This document shows positions 1 through 18,201 of a stretch of DNA of 18,201 nucleotides, piece after piece. The notes beneath the pieces are model-generated. The model was not told the origin of the DNA, ran no database searches, and saw nothing but the letters and a program-made list of their open reading frames with translations. This stretch comes from Gammaproteobacteria bacterium (GTDB taxonomy: Bacteria > Pseudomonadota > Gammaproteobacteria > UBA4575), in NCBI GenBank assembly GCA_965221955.1, contig CBDCTA010000019.1:1-18201 (forward strand), read 5' to 3'. The translations under genes and the position numbers were made by a program. How positions within the stretch are numbered: the stretch's first letter is position 1; each line of letters opens with the position of its first letter.

Positions 1-22
1 CAAATTTCTCATTAGGAATTTA

Positions 23-409: not shown

Positions 410-440
410 TATGCTATACACTTGTTTAAATTGGTGGACA

Positions 441-1157: not shown

Positions 1158-1167
1158 TTGTGAGTTA

Positions 1168-1578: not shown

Positions 1579-1582
1579 CTTT

Positions 1583-1981: not shown

Positions 1982-2024
1982 GAGGATTGAAAGCTTATTT
2001 TATCAATGGACTAATTTTCTCATC

Positions 2025-2819
2025 TTAATGAGAAATAGATTTAACTGTTTCTAATTTTGTTTCAGCGTTGATTGACTTTTTATTCATTGCATGTAGTGTA
2101 AAAACTTGTGTCATTGCATCTTCCAATGCTAATTGAAATTTAGTAATTCTTTGCTCCAACCAGTTCAATATAAAAATAGCAGGAATTGCAACACTGAGCC
2201 CCATTGCTGTTGTTAATAATGCTTCCCAAATCCCTCCGGATAAAATTGCAGGATCTACTGCAGTACCTGCAGCTTCTAATCGCTTAAATGCTTCGATCAT
2301 TCCAAATACTGTTCCAAGAAGCCCAAGTAATGGACTAAGAGCTGCAATTACTTCAATAGGTTTTAGATAGGAGCGAACTGCAGCTAAATGTATTGATGCA
2401 ACTCGTAAGGTTTCTTCACGTGCAATATCATAATCACAATATTTATGCTGAATAGCATGCATTGCAGTTTCTAACACGCGTGCAATCGGATTTCTTGTTT
2501 CGTTTAATACATTTATAGCTGGTTCATATTGTCCTTCACGCCATTGCTCCAGCGCCAAGTTGATAAATTTTCGGTCATTTAATTGAATCCAATAAAAATG
2601 CCATAGCTTCACCAATACTATCGCTAATATCAATACGGAAAGTACTAATAGGATTACAACTACTGGTCCACCCGCTTCAATAAATGAAAATAGTTGATCA
2701 ATCGACCAATTATTACCAGGTGCAACAGATGCTAATTCTTGATCATTAGTTTCTAGAGATTGAACTATCTCATTTTGTTCTATCGAGGACTCTAAATTGT
2801 CTATACTTTTTTTACTCAT
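2025..2819 (-). CDS. exbB: MotA/TolQ/ExbB proton channel family protein
   Basis: GGPVV; SPLLGLLGTVFGMIEAF; LSGGIWEALLTTAMGLSVAIPA motifs. Confidence 0.93.
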   Translation of the reverse strand: MSKKSIDNLESSIEQNEIVQSLETNDQELASVAPGNNWSIDQLFSFIEAGGPVVVILLVLSVLILAIVLVKLWHFYWIQLNDRKFINLALEQWREGQYEPAINVLNETRNPIARVLETAMHAIQHKYCDYDIAREETLRVASIHLAAVRSYLKPIEVIAALSPLLGLLGTVFGMIEAFKRLEAAGTAVDPAILSGGIWEALLTTAMGLSVAIPAIFILNWLEQRITKFQLALEDAMTQVFTLHAMNKKSINAETKLETVKSISH

Positions 2820-2871
2820 TATTATTTTGCTTACTTTTTAATTTTACATATCTAAGATTTAATTGTTCTAG

Positions 2872-4302
2872 CTATCGTAACAATCTACGAACACCAAGTA
2901 TTGCGCCAGTTGTACTAAATAAAAAACCTAAACCTAAAAATGCTAATATTACGCAGTACCATAATATTGGTCGCGATATAAGGCCAGGAAAGTCAAAACT
3001 ATGAAGCCCATTGAAAAGCCATCTATACAACCTACGACCTGAATTCATTACTGAGATAATTTCGCCGGAATATTTGTCTACATGAATCCAGGTTTTTTGA
3101 TCATCGGATAAAACAACACGTAATGCGCTCGAAGGCATGCTTCCTTCACGCAAATGTGCATATATATCGTCACTTGAAATTTTTGCCACATCTATAATTT
3201 CTGAATTTGGCCAAGCAGATTGTATTGCTGTTTGTATTAGTTGTTTAGATAGCCCACTTTTTTGCAATTGCCAATTTCCTTCTGAACTTAATAGCCAAAC
3301 CTGAAATTTTTCTTTGGAAGATTTACTCAATAAAAAAGGGACATCTGCAATTATTCGAAATTCAATTTCTTTTGTATTAAAGGAAGTTACAGATTCCAAA
3401 CTAGCAAGTCTCTGCGCATCTATACTTAATGAACTTCCATTAAATGCCTTCGTTTGCATAATTGTTGGATTAGGCTTCGAGAAAATTCTTCCATGATCCA
3501 TAGACAACCAACCGCTGAAAATCCACCCCAAAACAAACAACCCAACGAAAAGCCCACCTATATGATGCCAATACATCCAACCACTATATTCTGACCATCC
3601 ACTTCGTGCACGGATGGATTTGATAATACCTAGTGTAATTCCAGTGATTGCACTGACAATACCTGCTAAAGCTAGCCACCACACAAGTTGATCCCATAGT
3701 GTCCAATTTTTACGAATAACAGTGGGATAAATCCAATGAACAACGGCCCCAAAATAATTCCATAGGCGCTGTGATCGTGTAGTTTCTTGCAATACTTGAC
3801 CATTGTGGCTTGAGATATAAATTTTTGTACGTTCTACATCATCAAATTCAACTCGATAAAAAGGACGGTAAGGGTCATAACGGTTGCTAACAATCCATTG
3901 ATCATATTCGATTTCAGCACTTATTGTTTCAATGGTTTTATCTGGATAAAAGTTACTTGCTATTTTATGTATTTGATCTGATTTAAATTCGGGAGTATCA
4001 CCTGTGATCGCATTAACAACAGTAATTCGGGAATTCGCTTCACCTTTCCACCAAATATAAGGCTCACCGAGCTTACTAATCAGCGTAACCTTATATGGGT
4101 TTTCTTGTTGAAAAGATTTTAGTTCGGATATCGATAATAAATCTTTCGAATATTTGATTACTTCACTGCGTTTAAGTCTTTCGACTTCACTTAGCGAAGG
4201 GTATGGTTGAAATATCATCACCATACCACTTAAAAACCACGCAGAAAAAAACAAACACAGCCCTACTCCGATCCATCGATGTACAAATACGAAATACTGC
4301 AT
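2872..4302 (-). CDS. PepSY-associated TM helix domain inner-membrane protein
   Basis: HRWIG, HWIY, WHHIGG and LHSFDF His-containing TM motifs with two periplasmic PepSY-like regions; starts 8 nt after the TBDR stop. Confidence 0.88.
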   Translation of the reverse strand: MQYFVFVHRWIGVGLCLFFSAWFLSGMVMIFQPYPSLSEVERLKRSEVIKYSKDLLSISELKSFQQENPYKVTLISKLGEPYIWWKGEANSRITVVNAITGDTPEFKSDQIHKIASNFYPDKTIETISAEIEYDQWIVSNRYDPYRPFYRVEFDDVERTKIYISSHNGQVLQETTRSQRLWNYFGAVVHWIYPTVIRKNWTLWDQLVWWLALAGIVSAITGITLGIIKSIRARSGWSEYSGWMYWHHIGGLFVGLFVLGWIFSGWLSMDHGRIFSKPNPTIMQTKAFNGSSLSIDAQRLASLESVTSFNTKEIEFRIIADVPFLLSKSSKEKFQVWLLSSEGNWQLQKSGLSKQLIQTAIQSAWPNSEIIDVAKISSDDIYAHLREGSMPSSALRVVLSDDQKTWIHVDKYSGEIISVMNSGRRLYRWLFNGLHSFDFPGLISRPILWYCVILAFLGLGFLFSTTGAILGVRRLLR

Positions 4303-4310
4303 GTTGCATA

Positions 4311-6538
4311 CTAGTACCGTACTACAAGATTTAACTCATAGCTTCTAGGTTCGCCCAACAAGACTTGATTGGCAAATGGAAAACCAGGATCAGTCTGTTG
4401 GAAATAAAACACATCCGACCACTGAACATAATCTTCATCTGTTGCATTACGCACACGTGCTGTGAAGTCTAAATTATTACGATATTTATAAGTTGCAGAC
4501 AAATCTAGCAAGGAATAATCTTTCAATGTGGCATCATTAGCATTGGAAGCTTCGCGATCATCGACATAGCGGTACCATGCACCGAATTCAATTGGAATTG
4601 CTTGAAACGGTCGGACGTTAATCCAAGCATTTGCGGTCCAATCCGGCACGTTGGGTGGTGTGTTTCCAGCAAATTCATCAAAGTTTGCTGAGCCTTTAAA
4701 TTCGGCATCGACATAGGCAATATTTGCTGCCACATCGAGGTAAGAAACGGGTGCGTAATTGATTGCGGCCTCAAAACCCTTAGAATCTCTGCCGCCCACG
4801 TTAGTCGTACTATCGCGGTTAAAGGTTTCAGACACATCATCTCGCTCAATGTCAAAAAATGCAAATGAAAAGTTTAAGGAATTATCAATATTTCTAGCTT
4901 TTAATCCCACTTCCCATTGCTCTGCATCCGTGAGATCAAAATCTTCACCAGCATTCACAAGAAAAATATTAGAATTCGCCGGATCTTGTGCGTCACTGTA
5001 TTGCGCATAAATATTTATATTAGGAGTTAAAGAAAACACGCCGCCAACGCGCCAACCTACTGAATCAAAGTTTCGTCCAAACCCACTAGTCTCTTCTACG
5101 CCAGCCGCATTAAAATTTCTCCGTCGCAATTGTAGATCTTCGTAACGTGCTCCCGCGACTAGACTTAATCTATCGGTCACTTGTAATGCATTTTCAAAAA
5201 ATACTCCCCAAGTATCTATATCGGTAGGACTGACCCCTCTTTCTTCAATCGGCCCATAAACACCTTGAACCGGATCAAATAGATCAACAGAGTCTCCTGC
5301 TACTGGGGAAAAACGAAACCCACGTCTGCGTCTAAAATCCGTATCCTGATAATCAACACCAACTATAAATCGGTTATCTCTACCAAAAAGCTGGTGATCT
5401 GTGGTGATATCTAGCTTGGTGCCCCATGTTCTCTGATCATGAAGTACAAAGAAAAATCCATTCGTTCGGTCTATCAAGTCAGTCACATCATTATAAATAA
5501 ACCCTTCTGCGTTAAACCAATCACGTTCCGCATCAAAGTAGTACAATGTGTTTTTTAAACGGACATTGCTTCGTGGCATCCATTCAATATCTGTGCGTAG
5601 CAATAATTGATCAGACTCTGCTTCATAATCAGACACATTATAATTTTCATCACGAGTGCGATCGTCAATGACCGTACCTGCATCAGTATCAATTATTCCA
5701 TTAATTCGATCTGTACCCACACTTGCTGGGACAAGTGGAGTTCCCCAATAATTTGCTAATTCATCTTCTAAGTAGTCCGCGCTAAATGTGAGAGAAAGAT
5801 TATTTTTAAGCTTCCACAATAAACTTCCATTAATATTTGTCGATTCAGGATCCATATCATCAACAAAACCATCTGCGCCATTTTGGCTGATATCAAATTG
5901 ATACCAAAGAGAATCAGTAACGGGTCCTTCACTACCACCACACACTTGATAAGTATCCCACCGACCATAGGACAATTGGGCTGTATGGTTATAATTATCA
6001 GTTTCACGCGCCTTTTTAGTGACCGAATTTATAGCCCCGGCAACGGTTCCTTGTCCGTGTAACCCAGATGCTGGGCCACGGATTAATTCAAGACGTTCCA
6101 AATTACATGCATTCTGTGGGCGGCTCACCATATTAGCTGGTCCTAACCATAATCCATCACGTAATATAGTAATCTGACTTCTAGTAAACCCGCGCATCGA
6201 AAAGCTTGAAGGTGCCGCAGGAGAATTACCTACTGTGACACCTGGAAGCGTAATTAAAGCATCGCCAATACTCTGTGCGCCTATTCGCTCTATATTTGTT
6301 CGATCAATTATTTCAACAGAAGCAGGTGTTTCAAATGGAGTTAAACCTAATCTACTTCCTGTGTCATTTGGTGTTGAAAGATTTAATTCACCAGGTTGAT
6401 CAAATTCTAAAATTTCAGTTCCTTCTACTGTCATGCCTTCAAGCTTTACACTATCCTCAGCAAAACTATTTGTACAAATAAATAAATTAACAGTTAAAAA
6501 GATTAAATATTTAAATCTTGTAAATAGTAGAACTTCAT
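4311..6538 (-). CDS. TonB-dependent outer-membrane receptor (siderophore-receptor-like); probable true start at 6538 via a 1-nt indel
   Basis: Plug motifs ETPASVEII, FSMRGF, LERLELIRGPASGLHG...GAIN; C-terminal GEPRSYELNLVVRY. The frame stays open upstream of the track start (6434) and encodes a signal peptide RFKYLIFLTVNLFICTNSFA. The nearest ATG (6538) is out of frame by one base. Confidence 0.88.
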
Positions 6539-6956
6539 TTATAAATATTCTTGAAAAATTTAGATCGAATTTGTGTTGATAAAATAAAAAATTGAAATCG
6601 AGTATTTCCTTCGCGTATTAATTCCATGTGTCTTAGCTAGGTCCTTTATTATTAGGTATTGTCTAGACCTATAGCATAATACTATATCTATCTATATTTA
6701 TATTAGATCTTTCTATTTTATGATTAGGAACTACCCATAGATATCACCAATACTAAAAGTTTATTAAATAATGAATTTTTAATAATTTGATGATTAAAAA
6801 TGCTAAAGAATTGTGCTAAATGTTTTTTTGTACATTTATTATTCAAAAAATATTAGAATCTATAGGAAATATAAATATCAATCCTCTTAGTCGATATAGA
6901 TAAAAACTATATATAGTCACAAATATGAATAGGACTTTTCATAAAAAAGCTATCAT

Positions 6957-8987
6957 CTACTCAAATTCCAAGGATGCACCGAGAGTTACCCCTATTCCTG
7001 GCAACACGACACGATCCTTTGTGAACGAAGTGTGTTGACGCGCATCTTCATCTAACAAGTTTTCACCTTTAAGAAACACTCTTATCCCTGTCGAATCACC
7101 TGCGTAAAATGTTTTCGATACACTTGCATTCAGCATGGTGTAGCTGTCGGTATCGGTTTCAAAATTCGCTTCGTTGTTTGAGTCATCCACATAGATAAGA
7201 TCAATACTTCCATCCCAAGTATCTCGGTAAAATTCTAAACCTAGCCCAACACGTCCTGTTGGAATACGTGGCACATCACCTACATCGCTATCGTCAAACT
7301 CTGCTCGCACATAATCTCCAAAGATGCGGCCTCGTAGATCATATGCACTATTACTGACGAGTTGTTTCACAAATTCCGCTTCAATGCCATAAAACTCTGC
7401 ATCTTCGTTTTCATACATACCTGCAATTAATTCACCCATGGGGTCCAACATGCCGTCCTCATCAACACGATCCGCTTCGCCATCATTATTGGCATCGACG
7501 AGTGCAAGATAAATGTAATCATCTATTCGGTTGTAGTAGGTATTCACTGCCCAACTGTGACTACTTTTATTTTGTTCAAGCCCGAGTTCAATATTGTAAG
7601 AAGTTTCCTCATCAATATCGGTAGAACCAGTTTCAAATGTGAGTGTCGCTAAATGTGGGCCATCAGCATATAAAGCAGTTTCTTGTGGTGCGCGTTCAGT
7701 ACGGGCAACAAGTACATTAAATTTCATATCATTCGCCAACTGGCGTTGCGCGCCGAATGAAACTGAGAACACACTAAAATCTTCATCATCACCGTTATCA
7801 GGATCAAACTCATCGCGATCAAAGCGAATACCACCTTCTAAATCCCATAACTCACTGTGGTAATGACTCACGGCAAAGATTCCATAGCGTTCTTGATCTA
7901 GAGGCTGAATAAAAGCTTCTTCACCTACTGCAGAAAAGTCACGATCGTTATACTGCACACCATACGCATTTTTCCAACCATCATTAATAATATGAATAAT
8001 CTCGAGTCTGGATTCGAGTTCTTCATTATCAAATGCCGTGGCCACTTCTCCATCTTCTTCCACTTCAAAATGGCGGTAGTTATTGTAAGTAGAGCGTAAG
8101 GAGATCTTTTCAATATTACCGAAAGGACTAAACAATTCGGCAAGCATGTCATAGCGATATTGTTTGAGGTCGATACGAATATCGCCTTCTTCCGCGCCCG
8201 GTACTCCAAAATCAGTATCCAAGCGATTATAGCCAAAGCCGATCATGCCTTTATCGGTAATGTAACTTGCCCCCAAACCATTGTTATCCGTTTCTACATC
8301 ACTATTGGCTAGACGCCCTTTATTTTCACGCTCTTCCTCATTTGCGAAACCATCAATATCATAATCATCAGTATCTCTGGTTAAACCATCGAAGTGCCAC
8401 GCAAAGGAATTATGCGAACCATTTAACTCGAGAGCAGCGGTTTCACCATCCGATACCGTGGCATGTTCTACTGCAGCTTTTAGCTCAAATGGACTTGTTT
8501 TGAGTGTTTTTGGAATTCGATTATTAATAATATTTACTACACCACCAAATGCACTTGGTCCAAAGCGTAAGGTTGCAGGTCCACGAAGAATTTCAATTTG
8601 CTTAGCAAAGTATGGCTCAATCGATACAGGATGATCTTCACTAAGACTGGATGCATCCAGTGCACCAATACCGTTTTCTAGCACACGCACTCGGTTGCTA
8701 CCTAGCCCACGTATAATGGGGCGACTCGCACCTGGCGCAAAATAAGTAGAGTTCACACCGAGCTCATTTTTAACGGTTTCACCAATTGAATTGGATTGTT
8801 TACGTTCCAATTCATCACCGCTGAGAATTTTGATTGGCTGAGTGAACTCATCTGGATCTTCACCGGGAAACCAGCTTGATTCAATTACAATTTCTGGCAA
8901 ATCATACTTCCCAGGTGCAGATCCTTCTTCTGCATATACATACGTACATGCCACAAATAGAAATGAAACTAATACCAAAGTGCGCAT
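6957..8987 (-). CDS. TonB-dependent receptor, ZnuD-like (putative zinc uptake)
   Basis: GASRPIIRG, DASSLSEDHPVSIEP, IEILRGPATLRFG and GPHLATLTFETG match the ZnuD-type family. GGGAG SD lies 6 nt before ATG 8987 (alternative start 8990). Zur boxes upstream. Confidence 0.85.
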   Translation of the reverse strand: MRTLVLVSFLFVACTYVYAEEGSAPGKYDLPEIVIESSWFPGEDPDEFTQPIKILSGDELERKQSNSIGETVKNELGVNSTYFAPGASRPIIRGLGSNRVRVLENGIGALDASSLSEDHPVSIEPYFAKQIEILRGPATLRFGPSAFGGVVNIINNRIPKTLKTSPFELKAAVEHATVSDGETAALELNGSHNSFAWHFDGLTRDTDDYDIDGFANEEERENKGRLANSDVETDNNGLGASYITDKGMIGFGYNRLDTDFGVPGAEEGDIRIDLKQYRYDMLAELFSPFGNIEKISLRSTYNNYRHFEVEEDGEVATAFDNEELESRLEIIHIINDGWKNAYGVQYNDRDFSAVGEEAFIQPLDQERYGIFAVSHYHSELWDLEGGIRFDRDEFDPDNGDDEDFSVFSVSFGAQRQLANDMKFNVLVARTERAPQETALYADGPHLATLTFETGSTDIDEETSYNIELGLEQNKSSHSWAVNTYYNRIDDYIYLALVDANNDGEADRVDEDGMLDPMGELIAGMYENEDAEFYGIEAEFVKQLVSNSAYDLRGRIFGDYVRAEFDDSDVGDVPRIPTGRVGLGLEFYRDTWDGSIDLIYVDDSNNEANFETDTDSYTMLNASVSKTFYAGDSTGIRVFLKGENLLDEDARQHTSFTKDRVVLPGIGVTLGASLEFE

Positions 8988-9071
8988 CATAAACTCCCAC
9001 ACATACACAGGCTCTATTTATCAGGGCCAATAAATCAATAAAGAAAAGGACAATAAAACTCGTTATTGTTA

Positions 9072-9104
9072 TGTTATATTATAACTAAGTGTTATAATAT
9101 AACA
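9072..9104. promoter_or_regulatory. Two tandem Zur boxes
   Basis: TGTTATATTATAAC (9072-9085) and TGTTATAATATAACA (9090-9104) match the proteobacterial Zur core TGTTATAWTATAACA; they lie between a ZnuD-like gene and a divergent merC-family gene. Confidence 0.85.
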
Positions 9105-9194
9105 TTAATTCATCAAATAAAAAATAGTTTTCAACTACATGAAAACGATTTTAGATAAACCCCGGCTAAGGGCTGAATCCATTTTGACTAAGCT

Positions 9195-9615
9195 ATGATT
9201 AATGCACGCCCACTTACGAACAAAGCAGCCATTAGTTTGTCTTTCCTATGTATGATTCACTGCTTGGTTCTGCCTCTTTTAGTCGTTTTACTTCCTTCTA
9301 TTGCAGCCTTGCCATTAACGGATGAAATTTTTCCATGTATGGATGGTAGTGGCTGTGATTCCAATTTCAGCCTATGCACTTACAATGGGCTGCAAAAACC
9401 ACAAGCGTTACCAAATATTATGGATAGGTAGTATCGGCTTACTAATTTTATGCGTTGTTGCCTTTTTGGGTCACGATTTGCTAGGCGAAGAATTAGAAAA
9501 AGTTTTCACTATCATAGGCTCAATGATTATAGTTATTGCCCACGTATTGAATTATCGTTTATGCCAGCCTCAGGACATGTGTGCATGTCCTGAACAAAAC
9601 GATAATAGGATTTAA
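9195..9615 (+). CDS. MerC-domain membrane protein; +1 frameshift as sequenced at 9325-9332
   Basis: AISLSFLCMIHCLVLP (CxxHC) in ORF 9195-9431; FHVW..., GCKNH, AHVLNYRLC and C-terminal CAC in ORF 9322-9615. Removing one base from AAATTTTT joins the two (DE[F/I]FHVWM). Confidence 0.82.
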
Positions 9616-9697
9616 TGCAACAGACACTTCTTTTAAGACTTAGTTAGAACAAGTTGTTATATCTGATTTAACGCAGAACTATCAAATTTACTTAAGC

Positions 9698-9733
9698 CGT
9701 AAATCTATTCTAACCAAGCATAATAGATTTACG
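9698..9733. terminator. 12-bp stem-loop between convergent merC-like and nhaA; probable terminator
   Basis: CGTAAATCTATT (9698-9709) / AATAGATTTACG (9722-9733) perfect inverted repeat 2 nt after the nhaA stop; U-tract is weak. Confidence 0.55.
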
Positions 9734-9735
9734 AG

Positions 9736-10933
9736 TTAGTTCATATTACTTGAATTTGATTTCAGACTAGTACGTAAAATAAAATATCCGTATATACCTG
9801 AAGCGAGAGAACCAATAAGAATTCCTATTCTTTCATCTATCAAATAATTTGCACCTGTCTCCTCAAAGGCAAGCGAGCCGATAAACAAGCTCATCGTAAA
9901 TCCAACACCACAGAGCGCAGCAGTTCCATACAAGGAAAGCCATGAGATTTCTTCAGGAATTGTTGTTAAGCGTAATTTGATCCCCAACCAACAGAATAAA
10001 AATATGCCTATTTGGTTTCCAAAAAACAATCCAAGTGCGATTCCTAGAGGAATCCCATGTAATAGTTGCTCCAGTCCAAAATTCGAGAAATTAACACCTG
10101 CATTGCAAAAGGCAAAAATTGGTAGAATTATTAATGCAACGGTTGAATGCAAATCTTGCTCTAAACTTTTGAGAGGTGAAGTTTCCTGATTTGATTTTGC
10201 ATAAAATGGAATAAATAAAGCTAAAATTACACCTGCAAGTGTCGCATGCACGCCTGATTTTAACATTGCTACCCACATAACAATGCCAAAAATAATATAT
10301 ATACTTTTATCCGTTATCCCTTTTTTATTTAATACAAATAAAATTAAACAAGTTACTGCAACGATTAACAACGCAACAATTGAAATTTTACTCGTGTAAA
10401 ATAATGCAATGATCAGGATAGCCCCTACGTCATCAAAAATCGCCAATGATGTTAAAAATACTTTTAAACTAATGGGAAACCCTAGAACCTAATAAAGACA
10501 AAATCCCCAATGCAAATGCAATATCGGTTGCAGCTGGTATAGCCCAACCTTGTAGAGCAACAGGATCGTCATAATTTAACCAGACATAAATTAATGCTGG
10601 CACAAGCATTCCACCCAGAGCGCCTAGTGCTGGTAAAACAATTTTTTTTCGTTCGGATAGCTCACCTTCAATAAATTCTCGCTTTAGCTCTAAACCAATC
10701 AAAAAGAAAAATATGGCCATCAAGCCATCATTTACCCAAAGAAGAAGAGGTTTATAGATTTCTAATTGACCCACTTTAATTGCTACCGGCGTGTCGATGA
10801 GCATTTGGTAGTAAACATTTAATGGCGAATTGGCCACAAGAATCGCAAGGAACGCCGTTGTTACCAAAAAGATTCCAGCAAAAGACTCTTGCTGAATATA
10901 TTTTGCAAAAAAGGCGTTATTAGAATTTTTCAT
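9736..10933 (-). CDS. nhaA: Na+/H+ antiporter NhaA; +1 frameshift as sequenced at 10477-10479
   Basis: WVNDGLMAIFFFLIGLELKRE, GWAIPAATDIAFALG, AIFDDVGA, KSGVHATLAG, LCGVGFTMSLFI. Deleting one T gives GSRVPISLKVFLTSLAIFDD and fuses ORFs 10469-10933 and 9736-10446. Confidence 0.93.
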
Positions 10934-10938
10934 AATGA

Positions 10939-11838
10939 CTAATTGAATAGTTCTTCCCGTGCGGTTTCAGTAATACACATTACGCCTGGGTGTTTTAATT
11001 TTCTTTCTGGCGAAATGGCATAATACGATTCATTCAATTCATCTACTGTCCCGATCAAACTTGCGTTGTACATATGTTCAACATGCTCAGATATGGCAGT
11101 GGGTGCAGGAAAAACTCCTACACCCGCACTTCCAAATGCTTTGAGCAAGGCACTATCGTCAAATTCTGAAATTATATTCAGATCAATTTCTTGTTGATCG
11201 AACCAATCTTCCAAACTCCTTCGAAGTACATTAGTTTTAACAGGCATGAGCATAGGTGCATTATCTAATGAGGTTGGAAAATTTTTACGAAATGATTTTG
11301 CAAGTTTCCTTTCTGCAAAAAACGAAATCGTGCTATTTCCTAGCACATGGTTATACGCTTTTACGTGCAAACCTGGCGGAAGTGGCCTATCAGATAAAAT
11401 AAGGTCTAATTTATGCACTGCAAGATCACCTAGAAGTTTCTCAAGGTTACCCTCATGGCAAATAACTCGTACAGGATCCTCGAGCTCAAGTACAGGCTCA
11501 AGTATTCTGTAAGCAATTAACTTAGCGATTGAAAATACAACTCCCACATTTAATTCAAGAGATTTACCTGGCTCTTTGCTTTTTAAACGCTGCGATAACT
11601 CTGCGCCTAAAGAAAATATTTCATCAGCATATAAATGAACTATCTGACCCGTATCAGTCAACATTAGGCCACGCCCCTTTCGCTGAAAAAGCGCAGATCC
11701 TACAGAATCTTCTAATAGCTTGAGTTGACCACTAATTGTTTGTGGAGTGATATGTAGAACTTCAGAAGCTTTAGCAATACTCCCCTCACGCGCAACGGTC
11801 CAAAAATAATGTAGATGGTTGTAGTTTAAATGCCGCAT
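10939..11838 (-). CDS. nhaR: LysR-family transcriptional activator NhaR
   Basis: LNYNHLHYFWTVAREGSI...TPQTISGQLKLLE HTH; EFDDSALLKAFG; 5 nt upstream of nhaA. Confidence 0.92.
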   Translation of the reverse strand: MRHLNYNHLHYFWTVAREGSIAKASEVLHITPQTISGQLKLLEDSVGSALFQRKGRGLMLTDTGQIVHLYADEIFSLGAELSQRLKSKEPGKSLELNVGVVFSIAKLIAYRILEPVLELEDPVRVICHEGNLEKLLGDLAVHKLDLILSDRPLPPGLHVKAYNHVLGNSTISFFAERKLAKSFRKNFPTSLDNAPMLMPVKTNVLRRSLEDWFDQQEIDLNIISEFDDSALLKAFGSAGVGVFPAPTAISEHVEHMYNASLIGTVDELNESYYAISPERKLKHPGVMCITETAREELFN

Positions 11839-11893
11839 TTGAGTGTTTTGTTTTTATATTACCTAGCCATAATACTCATATTTAATTGTAAGG

Positions 11894-12015
11894 TATATTC
11901 GTATTATGAGTATATTATATTCGATATTCCCGATGTATTAGCAACTAACCGCTTTTTTAGCCCAATTATTTTCATCTCATCTAGTTAAACCGATGTATTA
12001 CCTAAAAATAAACGA
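11894..12015. promoter_or_regulatory. Putative LysR (NhaR) operator region of the divergent promoter
   Basis: TCG-N7-CGA (T-N11-A) at 11921-11933; TATATTCG at 11894 and 11916 (22-bp period); CCGATGTATTA at 11930 and 11990; CGA half-sites at 11991 and 12013 (22-bp period). Confidence 0.6.
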
Positions 12016-12074
12016 ATTGTTATGAAACGGATTGATGATTACGCTAAACACAATTTCAACAATCACTAAAACAT

Positions 12075-12464
12075 ATGCAACTTATTATTCAATCACACAA
12101 TGTAGAGATTACAGATCATTTACGCAGACACACAGAAAATAGAATTAACGATCTATTTTCTAACATAAGCAAAAGAGTCCAAAAAGTTTATGTTCGATAT
12201 TTCAAATCAAACAACAAAAATAATGTGACTTGTCAAATACATATCCAAACACGCGCTCTTCCAACAATTGTTTCCGAATTTCACGCTGATAGTGTCTATT
12301 TAGCTATAGAGTACGCAGCACTTCGGGCGAAAAGAAATGTAGTCAGAAGATTTGCAAAGTTAGAAAAATTATTAAATAAAATTTCTATCTTAAAAAAGCA
12401 AAAATCTAGCAAAAAGATACTCAGATTACCAAATCATAATCCGCAACTAACAAGAGAACTTTAA
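12075..12464 (+). CDS. HPF/RaiA-family ribosome-associated protein (paralogue 1)
   Basis: MQLIIQSHNVEITDHLRRHTENRI...VQKVYV...CQIHI...DSVYLAIEYAALRAKRNV matches the S30AE/HPF pattern; basic C-terminal tail. Confidence 0.75.
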   Translation: MQLIIQSHNVEITDHLRRHTENRINDLFSNISKRVQKVYVRYFKSNNKNNVTCQIHIQTRALPTIVSEFHADSVYLAIEYAALRAKRNVVRRFAKLEKLLNKISILKKQKSSKKILRLPNHNPQLTREL

Positions 12465-13141
12465 TGAAAATTATGAGCACAAATATTCGCAATAAATTTT
12501 TATACTTTTTTTTAATTATAGCCATACTGCCAATAGCAGCGTTTGCAGATATAAAAAAGATAAACAAGGACATCACACCTACAAAAGTTGATAGCATCAG
12601 TGTTGATGAGTTAGTAGAAAATATTCTAAAAAGTACTGAAGATGCTCTTGTAAACGTCGAATCTAATCCACAGAGTTCACTTCTTTCTGTCAAGAAAGCA
12701 ATTACTAAAGTAGAAATGCTGAAAGATCAATTATCGCATGACACGCATGCAGAAAATAAAAGTCCATTAATCATCAATGGCTCAAAAGAATATTGGTTTA
12801 TTTACCCACCTGTAAGCAATGATGTTTTACAAGACAAGACAACATTTCCAACTATATATTCAAAGTTGAAAAATGGGATTATGTATCAAGGAAATAATAA
12901 TAAGCAAAATGGTTCAAGTGCTGCATATTTTGACTATGCATTTGCTAAAGCAAGCTTATTAACTGCGCGTGAAGCTTTAGTCGCTGAGAATACACGTGAA
13001 GCCATAAGTTCCTTGAAATGGGTATTTGAAGCAATCTACATGAACCCTAATTTTTATGTTGCTGATTTAAATGATGTATTAATGATTGATAAATTAATCA
13101 ACTCTAAGACCAATCACTCATTTTTTTCTCAATCTAATTAA
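12464..13141 (+). CDS. Secreted/periplasmic helical protein, YfdX-like
   Basis: Signal peptide (...ILPIAAFA/D); helical segments TEDALVNV...LLSVKKAITKVE and AKASLLTAREAL...EAISSLKWV resemble YfdX repeats; TAATG stop/start overlap with the upstream gene. Confidence 0.55.
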   Translation: MKIMSTNIRNKFLYFFLIIAILPIAAFADIKKINKDITPTKVDSISVDELVENILKSTEDALVNVESNPQSSLLSVKKAITKVEMLKDQLSHDTHAENKSPLIINGSKEYWFIYPPVSNDVLQDKTTFPTIYSKLKNGIMYQGNNNKQNGSSAAYFDYAFAKASLLTAREALVAENTREAISSLKWVFEAIYMNPNFYVADLNDVLMIDKLINSKTNHSFFSQSN

Positions 13142-13203
13142 CTCGGAATTACAACACTATTAACACATTAATATACATATTAGCGAAAAAAGGAAATAAG
13201 GAC

Positions 13204-13308
13204 ATGATTTGCAAAAAATGCTTTAACTGTCAATTGTGGGGGGAGTTGGCAGCACTCACAACAGGTATGGCGCTAACATTTGGATTAATTTTACTGTTAT
13301 TTACATGA
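13204..13308 (+). CDS. 34-aa membrane microprotein with N-terminal CxxCxxC
   Basis: Hand translation MICKKCFNCQLWGELAALTTGMALTFGLILLLFT*; AGGA SD at 13191-13194, 9 nt before the ATG; fills the gap between same-strand genes; below the ORF-track size cutoff. Confidence 0.6.
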   Translation: MICKKCFNCQLWGELAALTTGMALTFGLILLLFT

Positions 13309-13355
13309 CTAATTTAATTTCAATTAGCTTTAGTATTCACAAAGATATTTAGCCG

Positions 13356-13841
13356 ATGTTAAGAACAGAAGACATATTTGAGGAAATTTTAAGAGATCAC
13401 ATATTTTTTTCAAAATACGATATGAGATCTCTTCAAAATAGATACCAACAAGCACAAGGCTCAAATCTTATATGTGGCGATTCTATTACAATATATTTTA
13501 GTAAATTCCAGGACACGTTGCATAATATTAGCTTTACAGGCAAGTGCTGTTCATCAACTAAAGCCTCTGCATCTATAATGGCTGATGAACTTAATGGTCA
13601 AACATTTGATTACGCACAACTATTATTTAACCGTATCAAGAAACTTATCTCCAATGAAATTAATGACCATAAATCATTTGATGTTCTAATAAGGAAGCTT
13701 TGCGATATATCTAAAAATAAACACCAACATTCAGTATATGACTGCGTGTTATTACCATGGGAGACAATGATTAATGCAATTCAAAAAGATAATGATTCAA
13801 AAACCCAACAGAAAAGAAACTTTTCTCTCTATTTATACTAA
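13356..13841 (+). CDS. SufU-like (NifU_N/IscU family) Fe-S assembly/sulfurtransfer protein
   Basis: GSNLICGDSITIY, SFTGKCCSSTKASASIM and DCVLLPW supply the three conserved Cys and the CGD Asp; insertion between Cys2 and Cys3 as in SufU; no LPPVK motif of IscU. Confidence 0.8.
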   Translation: MLRTEDIFEEILRDHIFFSKYDMRSLQNRYQQAQGSNLICGDSITIYFSKFQDTLHNISFTGKCCSSTKASASIMADELNGQTFDYAQLLFNRIKKLISNEINDHKSFDVLIRKLCDISKNKHQHSVYDCVLLPWETMINAIQKDNDSKTQQKRNFSLYLY

Positions 13842-13940
13842 TCTACTACTTCTTACATAACACTAACTATTTTGCTAACAATTCCCATGCTATTAACTAC
13901 TCCCTCCCCCGAAGTGCTGTTTGCACTTCTTAAACCAGTT

Positions 13941-13969
13941 GCCCCAGTTATTTCGATAATAACTGGGGC
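13941..13969 (+). terminator. 12-bp perfect hairpin, probable intrinsic terminator or 3' end of a small RNA
   Basis: GCCCCAGTTATT-TCGAT-AATAACTGGGGC followed by A/T-only TATAATATATTTT; preceded by a second hairpin GAAGTGC-TGTTT-GCACTTC (13911-13929). Confidence 0.6.
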
Positions 13970-14068
13970 TATAATATATTTTAAAAATATTTACTTAAGT
14001 TTAATTCAATTAGTATCACAAACCTATGTAACTTACGCTTAAAAAATTGAATTAATAGGTGATAAATT

Positions 14069-14440
14069 TTGCAAGAAATTAATATACAAACACATGGTTT
14101 AAAGCTAAATGAACCAATAAAAAAACATATTTTGCAACGTCTTCATAGCGTGTTTGGCTATGATAAAGACAAAGTACATAAAATTGTAATAAGTCTATTT
14201 GATAAAAATTCAGATTATAGTCACTCTGAAATATCTTGTTTTATTAGAATTTATATTTACAACCAAGTCCCAGTCGAAACCAAACTAAACTCATTAGATT
14301 TATTTTCCGCTATAACACTAGCAATTGAACATGCAAAAATTAAACTTGATCAGTCTATAAATAAGGCACATAAAGAGAAAAAACGCATTCGAATAAACGA
14401 AAAAACCATTAGATATGGCTCATATAGAATTTATCAATAA
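14069..14440 (+). CDS. HPF/RaiA-family ribosome-associated protein (paralogue 2)
   Basis: TTG start with AGGTGA SD 6 nt upstream; INIQTHGLKLNEPIKKHILQRL...KIVISL...CFIRI...DLFSAITLAIEHAKIKL. Confidence 0.72.
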   Translation: MQEINIQTHGLKLNEPIKKHILQRLHSVFGYDKDKVHKIVISLFDKNSDYSHSEISCFIRIYIYNQVPVETKLNSLDLFSAITLAIEHAKIKLDQSINKAHKEKKRIRINEKTIRYGSYRIYQ

Positions 14441-14503
14441 CCTACGTATTTCTCTTCAGCTTAAAGCGCTTATATAGAATAAAAATAATCATCCTTCTGC
14501 TCA

Positions 14504-14914
14504 CTAGTCCGCCTGCTCCGTCTTATATGGAAACTTAGAAGATCCATATCTCAGTGCAACGGATGCAACAGCTAACAATAATATGGCAGCTGCAAGCCAG
14601 ACAATGTCTACCGCATTCAGCTCCTTCATTCCCAAAATAATATAACGCGTGATAGCAACGATGGAAATATAGATCGGATAACGTACCGGAAGTTTACCAC
14701 TGGTGAAGTAGAGCCCTACCATGGTTAAAATTTCTAAGTAGATAAATAATAACAAGATGTCATGTAGTTCGACACGTCCTTGCTGATAGATAACATGCAA
14801 TTCTTGGCCTATGGCCACAATAGTAGCAAGAGTGATCAATACTAAACCAATACGCTCTATCAATAAGATAAAGCGCATGATGGGATGCGAATTGTCGAGT
14901 GTAGGTTTAGGCAT
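14504..14914 (-). CDS. psiE: Phosphate-starvation-inducible PsiE-family membrane protein
   Basis: DILLLFIYLEI...LPVRYPIYISIVAITRYII; GAGGT SD; four TM segments. Confidence 0.85.
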   Translation of the reverse strand: MPKPTLDNSHPIMRFILLIERIGLVLITLATIVAIGQELHVIYQQGRVELHDILLLFIYLEILTMVGLYFTSGKLPVRYPIYISIVAITRYIILGMKELNAVDIVWLAAAILLLAVASVALRYGSSKFPYKTEQAD

Positions 14915-14941
14915 GTTTTACCTCGAATTTGTATTTGTAAA

Positions 14942-15736
14942 CTAGAAGAACAGCTGTTTCAGTTTAGCGCCTGGATTCTCTGCAACCATAAAGGCTTCAC
15001 CCACTAAAAAGGAATTCACACCTTTTTCGGTCATAAGCGCAATGTCCTCTTTAGTGTGAATACCACTTTCAGTCACTACATGACAATCTTCAGGTATTTT
15101 AGAAAGCAGATTAAATGTTGTATCTAGCGATACATCAAAAGTGTGCAAATCACGGTTGTTAATGCCTATCATGGTTGGTTCGAGTTTGAGAGCACGATCC
15201 ATTTCTTCTTCATTGTGGACTTCCACCAAAACATCTAAACCTAATTCTTTGCCAAGTGCATAAAGTTCTGCCATTTGTTCATCTTCAAGTGCAGCAACAA
15301 TTAATAACAAGCAATCTGCATCTACTGCACGCGTTTCATATACTTGATAAGGATCAATAATAAAGTCTTTGCGCAATATAGGCAGCCAACAGGTTTTACG
15401 AGACAATTCTAAAATAGCACAAGAACCTTTAAAGAATTCACTGTCGGTTAATATCGATACACACGTCGCACCATTCATTTGGTAACTGGCTGCAATTTCC
15501 ATCGGGTTAAAGTTTTCCCGCAAAATACCCTTACTGGGTGAGGCGTGTTTAATTTCTGCAATCACCCCGGGCCGTTTTGCCGCTTGAGCACCGCGCAAAG
15601 CTCTTTCAAAACCACGTGGGGCAGGTGCTTCTTTCGCCATTTCTTGAAATTTTTCAAGTGGCATGTGCAGCTTGCGTTCTACAAGTTCTTTCTTTTTATG
15701 TTCTATAATTTTTGTGAGTATTTCAGGCTGATCCAT
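14942..15736 (-). CDS. trpC: Indole-3-glycerol phosphate synthase
   Basis: IAEIKHASPSKG, LRKDFIIDPYQ, LVEVH, GINNRDL, ESGI, FLVGEAFM. Confidence 0.97.
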   Translation of the reverse strand: MDQPEILTKIIEHKKKELVERKLHMPLEKFQEMAKEAPAPRGFERALRGAQAAKRPGVIAEIKHASPSKGILRENFNPMEIAASYQMNGATCVSILTDSEFFKGSCAILELSRKTCWLPILRKDFIIDPYQVYETRAVDADCLLLIVAALEDEQMAELYALGKELGLDVLVEVHNEEEMDRALKLEPTMIGINNRDLHTFDVSLDTTFNLLSKIPEDCHVVTESGIHTKEDIALMTEKGVNSFLVGEAFMVAENPGAKLKQLFF

Positions 15737-15741
15737 TGTCT

Positions 15742-16761
15742 TTAACTCATACTTTTTGTTAGTTCGATATATTGTTGGAATTTGTTTTTTGCGGCACCAC
15801 TGGCAATTGCCTCAGCTGCAAGCTGCACACCTTCTTCTAAGCTCGTAGCTTTATCACTGGCGTAAATGGCCGCCCCTGCATTGAGTTTTACGATATCTAA
15901 AGCCGCACCGACTTGATTATCAAAAACACTATTCACTATTTGCAAGCTTTGTGAGACATCGCTAGCGACGATATCCGCAAGACTACTCTCCTGTATGCCA
16001 AACTGTTTTGGGGCAATGTTATAGCGAGTGACTGAACCATCTTTTAATTCTGAAATTGTTGTCCCACTCGCAATACTAATTTCATCTAAACCATCTTCTG
16101 CATGCACCACTAATACATGCTTGCTACCTAAAGACTTCAATACATTGGCTAAGGGCTCTACCCATTGTGCGCTAAACACACCCAAGACTTGATGAGGCGC
16201 ATTTGCGGGATTTGTAAGGGGACCAAGCAAATTAAACATGGTGCGTGTGCCTAACTCTTTACGTGGGCCAATGGCATGCTTCATCGCACTATGATGTGCA
16301 GGCGCAAATAAAAAACCTATGCCCACTTCTTCAATACACTGGGCAACTTGTTCAGGCGTTAATTGTAAATTCACCCCCGCCGCTTCTAATAAATCAGCGC
16401 TGCCACTTTTACTGGATACAGAACGATTACCATGCTTCGCCACTTTCGCACCTGCTGCAGCAACGACAAAAGCTGCGGTTGTGGAAACATTAAAGGTACT
16501 TTTAGCATCACCCCCTGTACCGCAAGTATCGACTAGGTTTTCGGTTGATACATTGACTTTTGCTGAAAGTTCACGCATTACTGAAGCTGCGGCTGTGAGC
16601 TCTTCAACCGCTTCACCTTTCATGCGCAATGCGACGAGTAAACCTGCTACTTGTGCGGGAGTTGCTTCGCCTGACATCACTGTGCGCATCACGGTTGTCA
16701 TATCATCTCTAGCGAGATCATTGCCTTCAATTACGGTGTTGATTGCTTGTTGAATATCCAT
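15742..16761 (-). CDS. trpD: Anthranilate phosphoribosyltransferase
   Basis: [43 protein letters not shown]; ATG at 16761 (MDIQQAI) lies 10 nt after the trpG stop. Confidence 0.97.
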
Positions 16762-16771
16762 AGTTTTTTTT

Positions 16772-17354
16772 TTAGTTTTGCCGAACAAAGTTAGTTAACA
16801 AATGATGACCAAAATCTGTAAGTATTGATTCAGGGTGAAACTGCACACCTTCAACAGCAAATTGTTTATGCCGTACTCCCATAATTTCATCTAACTCGCC
16901 TGATTCATTTTCTGTCCAGGCTGTTATTTCCAAACAATCTGGAATAGATTGTTTTTCGATAACGAGCGAGTGATAACGCGTTGCAGTAAAAGGGTTATCA
17001 CACTTTTCAAATACATGTTTATTGTGATGATGAACCAATGAAGTTTTACCGTGCATCACCTGTTGGGCTTTAACAATCTTACCACCGTAGGCTTGGCCAA
17101 TACTTTGATGACCTAAAACACACACCTAAAATAGGAATTTCTCCACCTAGTGCGGTAATGGTTTCTAATGAAACCCCCGCCTCATTTGGTGTGCATGGGC
17201 CTGGCGAAATGACAATATGATCTGGCTGAAGCATTTTAATTTCTTTAACGCCAATTTGATCATTACGTACCACTTTCACTTCCTCACCAATCTCACCTAA
17301 GTATTGCACTAGGTTGTAAGTGAATGAATCATAGTTGTCGATCATTAATATCAT
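16772..17354 (-). CDS. trpG: Anthranilate synthase component II (glutamine amidotransferase); +1 frameshift as sequenced at 17115-17118
   Basis: [31 protein letters not shown]; deleting one T restores the catalytic GVCLGHQ. Confidence 0.93.
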
Positions 17355-17369
17355 GATGTTAATTCACTT

Positions 17370-18201
17370 TTAGTTAATTAAACTTGCAAGTTCAGCAGCC
17401 TTTTTCATCGCGCCCGCTTTATTATTGGTTTCGATCCACTCATTATCAGGATTGGAATCATAAACAATCCCTGCTCCAGCTTGAATATAGAGTTTTTCAT
17501 CCTTTATGACTGCTGTGCGAATCGCAATAGCCGTATCCATATTGCCATCCCAAGAAATATAGCCTACTGCACCTGAATAAATACCGCGTTTCGTGGGTTC
17601 AAACTCATCAATTATTTCCATAGCGCGAATTTTTGGTGCACCGCTTACGGTGCCTGCAGGAAACGTTGCTTTTAATACATCGACCGCATCTAGCTTGTTC
17701 GTTAATTTACCGATTACATTTGAAACAATATGCATAACATGCGAATAACGCTCAATGATCATTTTGTCGGTCAACATTACGCTGCCTGTTTGCGCCACTC
17801 GACCCACATCATTACGACCAAGATCAATCAACATTAAATGCTCGGCTAGCTCTTTAGGGTCAGCTAACAATTCCATTTCTAATTCATGATCTTGTTGCGC
17901 ATCTTTACCACGCGGACGTGTACCAGCAATAGGCCGAACTGTCACCTCATCTTCTTCTAGACGAACTAAAATTTCAGGAGAAGAACCAACAATATAAAAA
18001 TCCTCCATATTCATGTAATACATATAAGGAGAAGGATTTAAACTTCGCAAACTTCGGTATAAATTGATCGGCGCAACCGTAAAATCTGTGCTTTGTCTTT
18101 GTGATAATACAACTTGCATTACATCACCTGCACGAATGTATTCACGCGTCGCATCTACTGCATGTTTAAATTCATCTTCTGAAAATTCTGAAACGAACTT
18201 G
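17370..18201 (-). CDS. trpE: Anthranilate synthase component I (5'-truncated by the window edge)
   Basis: [53 protein letters not shown]; frame open to the window end (...[12 protein letters not shown]). Confidence 0.96.

Follow-up and report, generated by a model that had tools for sequence, protein, structure and literature searches.

In Escherichia coli the NhaR regulon includes nhaA, osmC and pgaABCD, and most descriptions of ribosome hibernation treat it as a reaction to starvation or to stationary phase. A connection between the two is reported in PMC10003395, according to which the rmf and rsd promoters of E. coli are bound by NhaR and deletion of nhaR raises the levels of RMF and of 100S ribosomes. 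On a link between NhaR and an HPF, RaiA or YfiA gene, searches of open-access full text show only this rmf work in E. coli. Here we describe a module of five genes at positions 12075-14440 of an 18.2-kb stretch of DNA (the window), which is the entire contig G000:C19 of a gammaproteobacterial metagenome-assembled genome (MAG). The module is divergent from nhaR and nhaA, and two members of the HPF/YfiA family form its ends. We put the probability at roughly 0.55 that it is an accessory stress operon, controlled by NhaR and built around a distinct clade of that family.

A second point of reference is a preprint on the evolution of HPF (10.1101/2025.11.04.686544). It states that the Moraxellaceae have lost RMF and that their HPF has an extra loop, which anchors it at the decoding site; the words NhaR, LysR and antiporter are absent from its text. 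Both the coupling of regulator to factor seen at the present locus and its combination of genes appear to be undescribed, and the parts are members of known families or make up new small ones.

A conserved operon divergent from nhaR and nhaA

Five open reading frames (ORFs) lie on the plus strand within 12075-14440, all of them divergent from nhaR-nhaA. The stop codon of the first gene, HPF1 (12462-12464), overlaps the ATG of the second, P225 (12464-12466), as TAATG. GC content across 11800-14400 is 0.27-0.33, against 0.38-0.465 in the trp genes on the far side of the module, where psiE, trpC, trpD, trpG and trpE are convergent with it. A preliminary description, made from the sequence of the window, had recorded the same-strand arrangement, the AT-richness relative to trp and the TAATG coupling correctly. 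Four of its five gene identities (HPF1, micro34, SufU-like and HPF2) were also right, and the linkage to nhaR is real and conserved in relatives. The features of the locus are:

9736-10933, minus strand: nhaA, Na+/H+ antiporter, split over two ORFs, 9736-10446 and 10469-10933, with NhaA model matches at residues 1-149 and 159-387
10939-11838, minus strand: nhaR, LysR-type activator, 5 nt upstream of nhaA; NF008284 at 262.3 bits (cut-off 219)
12075-12464, plus strand: HPF1, divergent HPF/YfiA-family protein of 129 aa with a conserved Cys53 and a basic C-terminal tail
12464-13141, plus strand: P225, secreted protein of 225 aa from a rare family, with a Sec signal peptide ending AFA|D
13204-13308, plus strand: micro34, 34 aa, N-terminal CxxCxxC followed by WGE and one transmembrane helix; AAGGA upstream
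13356-13841, plus strand: SufU-like, 161 aa, with Cys40-Gly-Asp42, Cys64-Cys65, Cys130 and LLPW, and a C-terminal D(Y/F)SLYLY
13911-13969, plus strand: two hairpins (13911-13929 and 13941-13969), the second a terminator-like stem with an A/T-rich tail
14069-14440, plus strand: HPF2, a more divergent HPF-fold paralogue of 123 aa with a TTG start and a conserved C-terminal YGSYRIYQ

Whole or in part, the module is found in at least ten related uncultured genomes, titled as uncultured Gammaproteobacteria MAGs with one titled Thiotrichales, and its gene order recurs among them, as had been asked of other genomes in the preliminary description. The full five-gene set singled out there stands for few genomes: both haplotypes of G000 have it, as do G022, which belongs to another genus, and G007, where the module starts at the contig start. 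G002 has the module without HPF1, and the conserved core is only nhaR with its divergent HPF-like gene. G014 and G011 have the module without micro34. Second copies in G006 and G008, away from nhaR, read HPF1-P225-micro34-HPF2, and the copy of G006 beside nhaR reads HPF1-P225-HPF2; G012 and G009 have only HPF1-HPF2 divergent from nhaR. Additional copies in G011 consist of a solo HPF1 and of HPF1-P225-BI-1. The gene past HPF2 differs from lineage to lineage (psiE/trp, fdhD, a Ser/Thr kinase, DUF481-SelO or a CoA-binding protein), which marks the boundary of the module.

The ratio of nonsynonymous to synonymous substitution (dN/dS) between the window and G022 is 0.27 for HPF1, 0.19 for P225, 0.035 for micro34, 0.18 for SufU-like and 0.24 for HPF2. 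Between G014 and G011 it is 0.12-0.14 overall (HPF1 0.13, P225 0.12, HPF2 0.12), and for nhaR it is 0.03-0.04 (0.04 against G022). By this measure the module genes are under purifying selection, and the neutral decay that the preliminary description had named as a refuting outcome is not seen at values of 0.035-0.27. Among 41 relatives, NhaR is present in 12 and P225 in 10, nine of the ten P225 genomes being NhaR-positive, in counts that are descriptive only for genomes that are mutually related. The tenth is G007, where NhaR is unmatched and the module abuts a contig end; NhaR and P225 are both absent from the complete genomes G001 and G010. That the module is a real, conserved operon we regard as very nearly certain.

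The control region and its bipartite box

The spacer between nhaR and HPF1 is 236 bp long and unusually conserved, with 36 invariant columns in a nine-genome alignment, though the module proteins are only 25-50% identical. The elements read in it are:

11895-11940: nhaR-proximal CG-core boxes, TTCGTA (11898-11903), TTCGAT (11920-11925) and CCGATGTATTA (11930-11940), conserved alignment blocks
11980-12020, plus strand: bipartite box upstream of HPF1, distal half AAACCGATGTAT and proximal half AAATAAACGAATTGT, with CGA cores 22 nt apart
12017-12045, plus strand: putative promoter elements, -35-like TTGTTA (12017-12022), a 17-nt spacer and -10-like TACGCT (12040-12045)

The consensus of the bipartite box is ..TAAAAnCGAAnTAT..(8)..AAAAATAAACGAnTTGT, and its 3' end is a TTGTnn -35-like hexamer with TAnnCT 17 nt later. 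All aligned relatives preserve the TAnnCT hexamer at this spacing, and the HPF1-type ATG lies about 55 nt downstream of the box. The proposed HPF1 promoter is not among the sites given by a sigma-70 consensus scan that required at least 9 of 12 matches. The box lies upstream of each of the 18 module starts examined, whether HPF1-type, P225 or HPF2. Six box-bearing places have no nhaR match nearby, namely the solo or unlinked HPF1 copies of G011, G006 and G008, the divergent HPF-like gene of G011, SGMAG-20 and the Thiotrichales MAG. The box is also found at HPF2 of G002, at P225 of the Thiotrichales MAG and in G007, whose contig begins just upstream so that the neighbour is not visible.

A position weight matrix (PWM) was built from the upstream box sites, which themselves score 28.6-53.2. 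When the source genome was scanned with it, the two haplotype copies scored 46.5 and the next best site 17.4; the box is private to this operon in its own genome, and the scan showed no further regulon members there. In the 3.1-kb nhaA-nhaR region of E. coli K-12 the best match lies 64-104 nt upstream of the nhaA start and scores 9.3, against -4.2 ± 4.4 in 200 shuffles with a maximum of 9.7. This E. coli stretch reads TCGTAAAAAACGAATTAT; it includes the PRODORIC NhaR consensus TcgtaAaAAac and also resembles the revised NhaR consensus TCgaAAAAatCtA, both of which are quoted in Krol 2018 (PMC6307784). The spacers between nhaR and HPF-like genes in other families have a homologous layout, TTCG..(A/T)ACGAA..TAT..AATCGACTTTT, with 113-170 bp between the matched stretches.

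Because of its likeness to the site upstream of E. coli nhaA and to the published consensus, the bipartite box is most likely an NhaR site, as predicted from its letters. The box, the adjacency of nhaR and the joint gain and loss of regulator and module make NhaR control of the operon a likely prospect. The CG-core boxes at 11895-11940 are probably NhaR sites as well, putatively for the nhaR-nhaA promoter.

HPF2 seems to have a copy of the box of its own. In G002 a full bipartite box (PWM score 46.9) lies upstream of HPF2, G014, G011 and G022 have ATAAACGACTAGT-like halves there, and in the window (14000-14039) a degenerate TTTAATTCAATTAGT precedes, with 19 nt between them (14015-14033), a TACGCT, the -10-like hexamer of HPF1 again. 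An AT-rich block, ..ACACTATTAACAC..TAATATACATATTAGC..AAAAAGG, is conserved in the spacer between P225 and micro34 (13142-13203) even though the proteins of the genomes concerned are only approximately 45% identical; it may be an internal promoter, or a site of mRNA processing or translation control for micro34.

Two paralogues of the HPF/YfiA fold

HPF1 matches PF02482 with 34.6 bits (cut-off 23.7) and TIGR00741 with 41.2 bits (cut-off 40.9), and a profile of 15 HPF1 sequences matches 22 chains of HPF, YfiA and PSRP1 proteins in the PDB, the best being 5njt_x at 1e-7. HPF2 reaches 17.0 bits on PF02482 and 18.8 bits on TIGR00741, both under the cut-off, and among PDB chains its profile matches only 7m4z_v of Acinetobacter baumannii (2.8e-4), in an alignment that runs through the loop and the Cys. 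In a comparison of the two profiles (hhalign 99.5%, E 2.4e-22) HPF2 is clearly a paralogue of HPF1. The fold was tested on the HPF2 model only. This AF2 model, with a predicted local distance difference test (pLDDT) score of 73.5, has the order b-a-b-b-b-a (E3-9, H15-29, E36-46, E54-63, E69-75, H78-117), and its top 34 PDB matches in Foldseek are all ribosome-bound HPF, YfiA or pY proteins. The best of them is 5mmj_y (E 5.6e-9, template modelling (TM) scores 0.74/0.78, root mean square deviation (rmsd) 2.1), and 7m4z_v gives TM scores of 0.72/0.85.

The source genome further holds a canonical rpoN-hpf-ptsN locus and another HPF, and RMF was not found in it (the MAG is 96.6% complete). From family and fold, we lean slightly towards the view that HPF1 and HPF2 silence or protect ribosomes under Na+ or alkaline stress. 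Such a role fits the lack of RMF in this genome, and it fits what 10.1101/2025.11.04.686544 says of the loop-bearing HPF of the Moraxellaceae.

Tyr-rich motifs occur at the C-termini of two module proteins: ..D(Y/F)SLYLY in SufU-like (13821-13841), kept in 6 of 8 relatives, and ..YGSYRIYQ in HPF2 (14417-14440), kept in 6 of 11. They could be a shared docking or degradation signal.

The nhaR and HPF-like pair across the class

To place the locus in its class, 400 genomes were drawn evenly over the Gammaproteobacteria, and NhaR (E ≤ 1e-40) and the HPF-like clade (profile A9, E ≤ 1e-12) were recorded in each. NhaR is present in 61 of the 400 and the HPF-like clade in 36; 31 of these 36 are NhaR-positive genomes and only 5 of the 339 NhaR-negative genomes have a member, in counts that overstate the co-occurrence, the genomes being related. 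With G000 and G014 left out, 29 genomes of other families have both genes, and in 19 of them the two are divergent neighbours. In three the genes lie within 2.5 kb in another arrangement, and in seven they are apart or on different contigs. The preliminary description had placed nhaR beside HPF-like genes in other genomes, and these 19 of 29 genomes bear this out.

The HPF-like proteins of other families carry the signature MQIDIQ...RLSDINGPRGGxDKxC...IEDTE...AIDRAxDRAGR, the Cys of which is the one that is nearly invariant in HPF1 and HPF2. All 12 aligned members are under the TIGR00741 cut-off and match hibernation factors in the PDB. In 6 of 11 extended loci (L113-L123) the gene next after the HPF-like one encodes a BI-1/YccA-family membrane protein. 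The widespread core is therefore nhaA-nhaR divergent from an HPF-like gene with an envelope or pH-related gene behind it, and P225, micro34, SufU-like and HPF2 are lineage-specific additions to this core.

Other neighbours at L113-L123 include carbonic anhydrase (3 of 11), a class-II FBP aldolase-Dabb fusion (two), a rhodanese (one) and an ion-transport channel protein (one), which hints at a wider neighbourhood related to pH or bicarbonate. No eRF1-type Pfam domain was detected among the scanned neighbour ORFs (E ≤ 1e-3 or 1e-5); Balon itself was not searched for in the genome. At locus L023 of G011 (G011:C11, 5717-8374), HPF1, P225 and BI-1 stand in a row, with a third, weak HPF-like ORF divergent from them and a copy of the box for each direction. 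L023 is an intermediate form between the BI-1 arrangement of other families and the P225 type.

P225, micro34, SufU-like and the hairpins

P225 has no Pfam or NCBIfam match. A Sec-type signal peptide can be read from its sequence and is kept in relatives; the family has 23 representatives at E ≤ 1e-3 among 1.84 billion proteins and 11 loci in a collection of species-representative genomes. The AF2 model of P225 has a mean pLDDT of 71, with 96 residues at 90 or above. Its top nine Foldseek rows are all YfdX, albeit weak (E 2.8e-3 to 5.7e-2, TM 0.37-0.52). In a VIA search, which is independent of Foldseek, YfdX 6a02 ranks first (Z 10.9, rmsd 3.3 over 110 residues), just ahead of the second-best match, an unrelated helical protein: the small metal-binding protein SMBP, at Z 10.4 with an rmsd of 1.5 over 80 residues. 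Aligned with hhalign, the P225 family gives 27% probability and E 6.7e-4 against an alignment of 21 YfdX sequences, and E 0.14 against E. coli YfdX alone. The Pfam YfdX model (PF10938) gives nothing at E ≤ 1 for P225 and 19 relatives and nothing in a six-frame search of G000 and G014, and a PDB profile search with P225 gives nothing below E 0.69. The YfdX-like call of the preliminary description thus keeps its weak fold match and loses the family assignment: judged by its model, P225 is YfdX-like at most as a distant fold and is outside the Pfam YfdX family. A conserved Cys/His cluster is absent. That P225 is a periplasmic protective protein is a guess, and an unlikely one.

The micro34 protein reads M-I-C-K-x-C-F-x-C-x-L-W-G-E, followed by a hydrophobic helix. 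The exact 34-codon ORF is present in both G000 haplotypes and in G022, G002, G006, G007 and G008. Against G022 it shows 91% amino acid identity with a proportion of synonymous differences (pS) of 0.58 and the dN/dS of 0.035 given above, figures by which micro34 is a real, strongly constrained gene. No relatives were found outside the lineage, the best score in a protein atlas being 0.84 with none at or above 0.9. A search for micro34-like ORFs (CxxCxx(x)C with a hydrophobic tail) at the 11 other-family loci L113-L123 and at 11 loci of its own and nearby lineages gave only off-frame matches in nhaA, and a CxxCxxC scan of G014 and G011 did not find micro34.

SufU-like matches NifU_N with 32.9 bits (cut-off 22) and, over its full length, the SufU equivalog TIGR01994 with 74.2 bits, under the cut-off of 92.5. 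Its C40-G-D42, C64-C65 and C130 align to the ligand positions of PDB 6a6f and of SufU entries, and in eight relatives D42, C65 and C130 are invariant and C40 is kept in seven. The window contains no desulfurase gene. In the source genome (96.6% complete) there is no PF01458 match that would mark SufBD, and iscS-iscU are present on C29; because the genome has iscS-iscU and no SufBD, the preliminary description was right to call SufU-like an orphan. A word-based homologue search returned four clusters for SufU-like and two for HPF1, numbers that are uninformative about range. We would guess that micro34 and SufU-like are membrane-proximal handlers of metals or thiols, which for either of them is doubtful.

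The two hairpins after SufU-like (13911-13929 and 13941-13969) have a minimum free energy of -31.6 kcal/mol (z -5.15), the second being a stable 12-bp stem. This second stem is kept in G014, G011 and G002 with different stem letters and is followed there by a clear T-run, and an Rfam scan of 11500-15000 at E ≤ 1 gave no match. Where the preliminary description had seen a separate structured RNA gene, the pair is best read as terminator-like, and as the putative terminator of the transcript from HPF1 to SufU-like. An ORF of 56 codons in this stretch (orf56, 13872-14042) was considered as a gene and rejected: it runs over both hairpins, has no family match, and a 2-bp haplotype indel shifts its frame and start.

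The contig and its second haplotype

The source MAG measures 2.69 Mb, with 4.3% contamination. Positions 6957-18201 of the window are a second haplotype (or copy) of G000:C3:42334-53568. Identity between the two is approximately 99.3% from about 9900 to the contig end and 68-85% per 300-bp bin from 6957 to about 9900, a part that holds a ZnuD-like TonB receptor and a MerC-like gene; window positions 1-6956 have no counterpart at the C3 locus. This pattern suggests that a recombined or replaced segment has its boundary within the 3' end of nhaA.

At 10477, 16764, 17115 and 9333 the window has one base more than C3, each time in a homopolymer run; nhaA and trpG are split as a result, and the MerC-like ORF is cut short. 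The base added at 10477 sits in a GGG/AAA run, and the C3 copy of nhaA is one ORF of 398 aa. Public-run contigs of 2-5x depth, from four runs of DNA or of unknown type, show both haplotypes in one sample and lack the extra base at 10477, 16767 and 17115 where these are covered, the only such contig over 10477 coming from run X1 at depth 2.4. Because the extra bases fall in homopolymer runs and are missing from the C3 copy and from these low-depth contigs, we do not take nhaA for a genuine pseudogene; more likely the bases are rare variants, or errors of assembly or sequencing. The five module ORFs are intact in both haplotypes, the frameshifts are all outside the module, and the sole haplotype indel within it falls in non-coding DNA. 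The iscS gene (G000:C29:550912-552004) is likewise split into two frames.

Adjoining nhaA, positions 1-9008 hold a metal-uptake cluster, made up of a TonB-ExbB-ExbD-ExbD set, a PepSY_TM protein and two TonB-dependent receptors. One of these receptors scores 396 bits on the ZnuD zinc-piracy model, far under the cut-off of 950. The public sequencing runs with the stretch (X1-X8) bear either the label of a marine metagenome or one coded organism label. This is consistent with a marine habitat, high in Na+ and mildly alkaline, though only three of the runs contain at least half of the sampled words.

Proposed mechanism and alternative explanations

We infer, as the preliminary description did, a programme triggered by salt or pH, in which NhaR binding, Na+/pH induction, ribosome binding and the roles of P225, micro34 and SufU-like would come together as follows. 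NhaR, encoded divergently with nhaA, would bind the bipartite box at 11980-12020, which abuts the -35 region of HPF1. Under Na+ or alkaline stress it would activate a transcript of HPF1, P225, micro34 and SufU-like that ends at the hairpin at 13941-13969, and HPF2 would follow, probably under a weaker box and a promoter of its own. From the decoding region of the 30S subunit, HPF1 and HPF2 would keep ribosomes silent or protected as NhaA brings ions and pH back into balance. P225 would be exported to the periplasm; its gene has the position, directly behind the HPF-like gene, that BI-1/YccA has in other lineages. Finally micro34, as a cytoplasmic CxxCxxC on a membrane anchor, and SufU-like, with its Zn/Fe-S-type site, would probably handle metals or thiols at the membrane.

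A number of observations weigh against an NhaR-controlled hibernation operon. At the promoter, the halves of the box look like direct repeats, and LysR sites are usually described as T-N11-A dyads; the shuffle maximum (9.7 of 200) about equals the score of the E. coli box (9.3), and the HPF1 start has no clear Shine-Dalgarno sequence. The tail of the window hairpin is T-poor, and a simple terminator scan lists none here. HPF1 is barely above its family cut-offs and HPF2 is below them by sequence. Across the class, 10 of the 29 other-family genomes do not have the two genes as divergent neighbours, 30 of the 61 NhaR-positive genomes have no HPF-like clade member, and relatedness inflates such counts. 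Within the module, micro34 and SufU-like are each found without the other and are missing from many variants. No RNA run is listed among the public sequencing runs that contain the stretch. Lastly E. coli NhaR appears, from PMC10003395, to repress rmf, which is opposite in sign to the activation proposed here.

In a rival account the operon is real and the box belongs to another regulator, or is a strong promoter or UP element, nhaR being a neighbour by shared history and the NhaR sites of the spacer serving autoregulation only. The box also stands before module copies far from nhaR, which it would drive there, its direct repeats 22 nt apart are a layout typical of response regulators, and G007 has the module with NhaR unmatched. 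We nevertheless consider this account rather unlikely: the gene next to the G007 module is out of sight, because the contig starts there, the box resembles the NhaR site of the E. coli nhaA promoter and the published consensus, the homologous layout recurs in the 113-170 bp nhaR/HPF-like spacers of 19 other-family genomes, and module and nhaR have been gained and lost together. HPF1 and HPF2 might instead have the HPF fold without being hibernation factors; they might help the envelope protein encoded next (P225 here, BI-1 elsewhere) by binding RNA or coupling translation, or serve as specific regulators of translation in ion stress. The divergence of the clade (12 of 12 other-family members under the TIGR00741 cut-off), the canonical rpoN-linked hpf and further HPF that the genome already holds, and a stop/start overlap kept in 9 of 11 HPF1-P225 pairs and in some HPF-like-BI-1 pairs all speak for such a role; but the whole HPF fold is kept, the best structural matches are ribosome-bound factors, the profiles match 11-22 hibernation factors in the PDB, and the solo HPF1 and HPF1-HPF2-only variants lack an envelope gene, which leaves it unlikely.

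Zn starvation has been linked to hibernation in mycobacteria, and a unit devoted mainly to metal (Zn or Fe-S) stress could have recruited HPF paralogues in the same manner, with the NhaR link secondary. The Zn-type ligands of SufU-like, the CxxCxxC of micro34, SMBP as the second-best VIA match of P225, and the ZnuD-like TonB receptor and MerC-like gene just past nhaA would all be at home in it. Set against them, SufU-like and micro34 are absent from many variants in which the HPF-like gene and the box are constant, P225 has no conserved Cys/His cluster, and no Zur- or Fur-type site was seen, though no search was aimed at one; we regard a metal unit as quite improbable. Hardly credible, and already contradicted, is a decaying, horizontally acquired AT-rich islet or a functionless assembly artefact. 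The module GC of 0.27-0.33 is below that of its flanks, and in this contig, a second haplotype, nhaA and trpG are frameshifted and the MerC-like ORF is truncated, but the five ORFs are intact in both haplotypes and in relatives at dN/dS of 0.035-0.27, and the frameshifts lie outside the module, in homopolymer runs, its only indel being non-coding.

The NhaR-controlled stress operon remains our preferred reading, and a broader and more tentative extension of it concerns the class. In many Gammaproteobacteria the loop-bearing HPF clade might be an output of the Na+/alkaline-pH sensor NhaR, giving an RMF-independent, ion-stress-specific hibernation wired to the antiporter switch; the marine lineage would have doubled the factor and added P225, micro34 and SufU-like, so that translation shutdown, envelope protection and metal or thiol chemistry are switched on together. 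If true, ion or pH stress would be a direct trigger of hibernation, with an HPF paralogue under a Na+/alkaline-pH regulator. The divergent pair is conserved in about a third of the sampled NhaR-bearing Gammaproteobacteria, and a single regulator, a single box and a small operon make a regulon that is testable in culturable species. The lineage-specific parts, namely the rare P225, the constrained micro34 and a lone SufU-like protein in an ISC-only genome, are candidates for new envelope biology.

Comparison with known systems

The locus resembles the E. coli NhaR regulon in having an NhaR orthologue, above cut-off, next to nhaA and a promoter box like the NhaR site of nhaA, and a link between NhaR and hibernation genes is reported for E. 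coli in PMC10003395. It differs in gene order, which is nhaR-nhaA here and nhaA-nhaR in E. coli, and in the divergent operon of HPF-family paralogues, which is absent in E. coli.

The pair of nhaR and a divergent HPF-like gene followed by BI-1/YccA, as found in other families, shares with this locus the regulator, the HPF-like clade, the homologous layout of the box and an envelope gene close behind. The second gene is BI-1 (PF01027) there and encodes the secreted P225 here, and micro34, SufU-like and HPF2 were not found at those loci.

P225 is like YfdX (PF10938; 3dza, 6a02, 6a09, 6uxt) in being secreted, of about 200 aa and with a helical hairpin-repeat core; unlike YfdX it has no Pfam match and belongs to a far rarer family, and its Z of 10.9 is within the noise of helical bundles. 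SufU-like compares with SufU, the Zn-dependent sulfurtransferase of the Bacillus subtilis type (TIGR01994; 5xt5, 1xjs, 6a6f), through a full-length match in which Cys-x-Asp, Cys and Cys-x-LLPW are kept. It departs from SufU in being under the equivalog cut-off, in having neither a SufS neighbour nor SufBD, in its extra DYSLYLY and in its place within a putative stress operon.

With the HPF, YfiA (RaiA) and pY factors, HPF1 and HPF2 share the b-a-b-b-b-a fold, and profiles of the clade reach many ribosome-bound structures, including chain v of A. baumannii 7m4z and chain D of the P. urativorans RaiA structure 8rd8. What sets the clade apart is a lengthened b2-b3 loop with a conserved Cys behind it (in other families ..DINGPRGGxDKxC..). 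HPF1 and HPF2 lie outside the rpoN-hpf-ptsN locus, as two paralogues that bracket an operon, and they have short basic or Tyr-rich tails instead of the dimerisation domain of long HPF.

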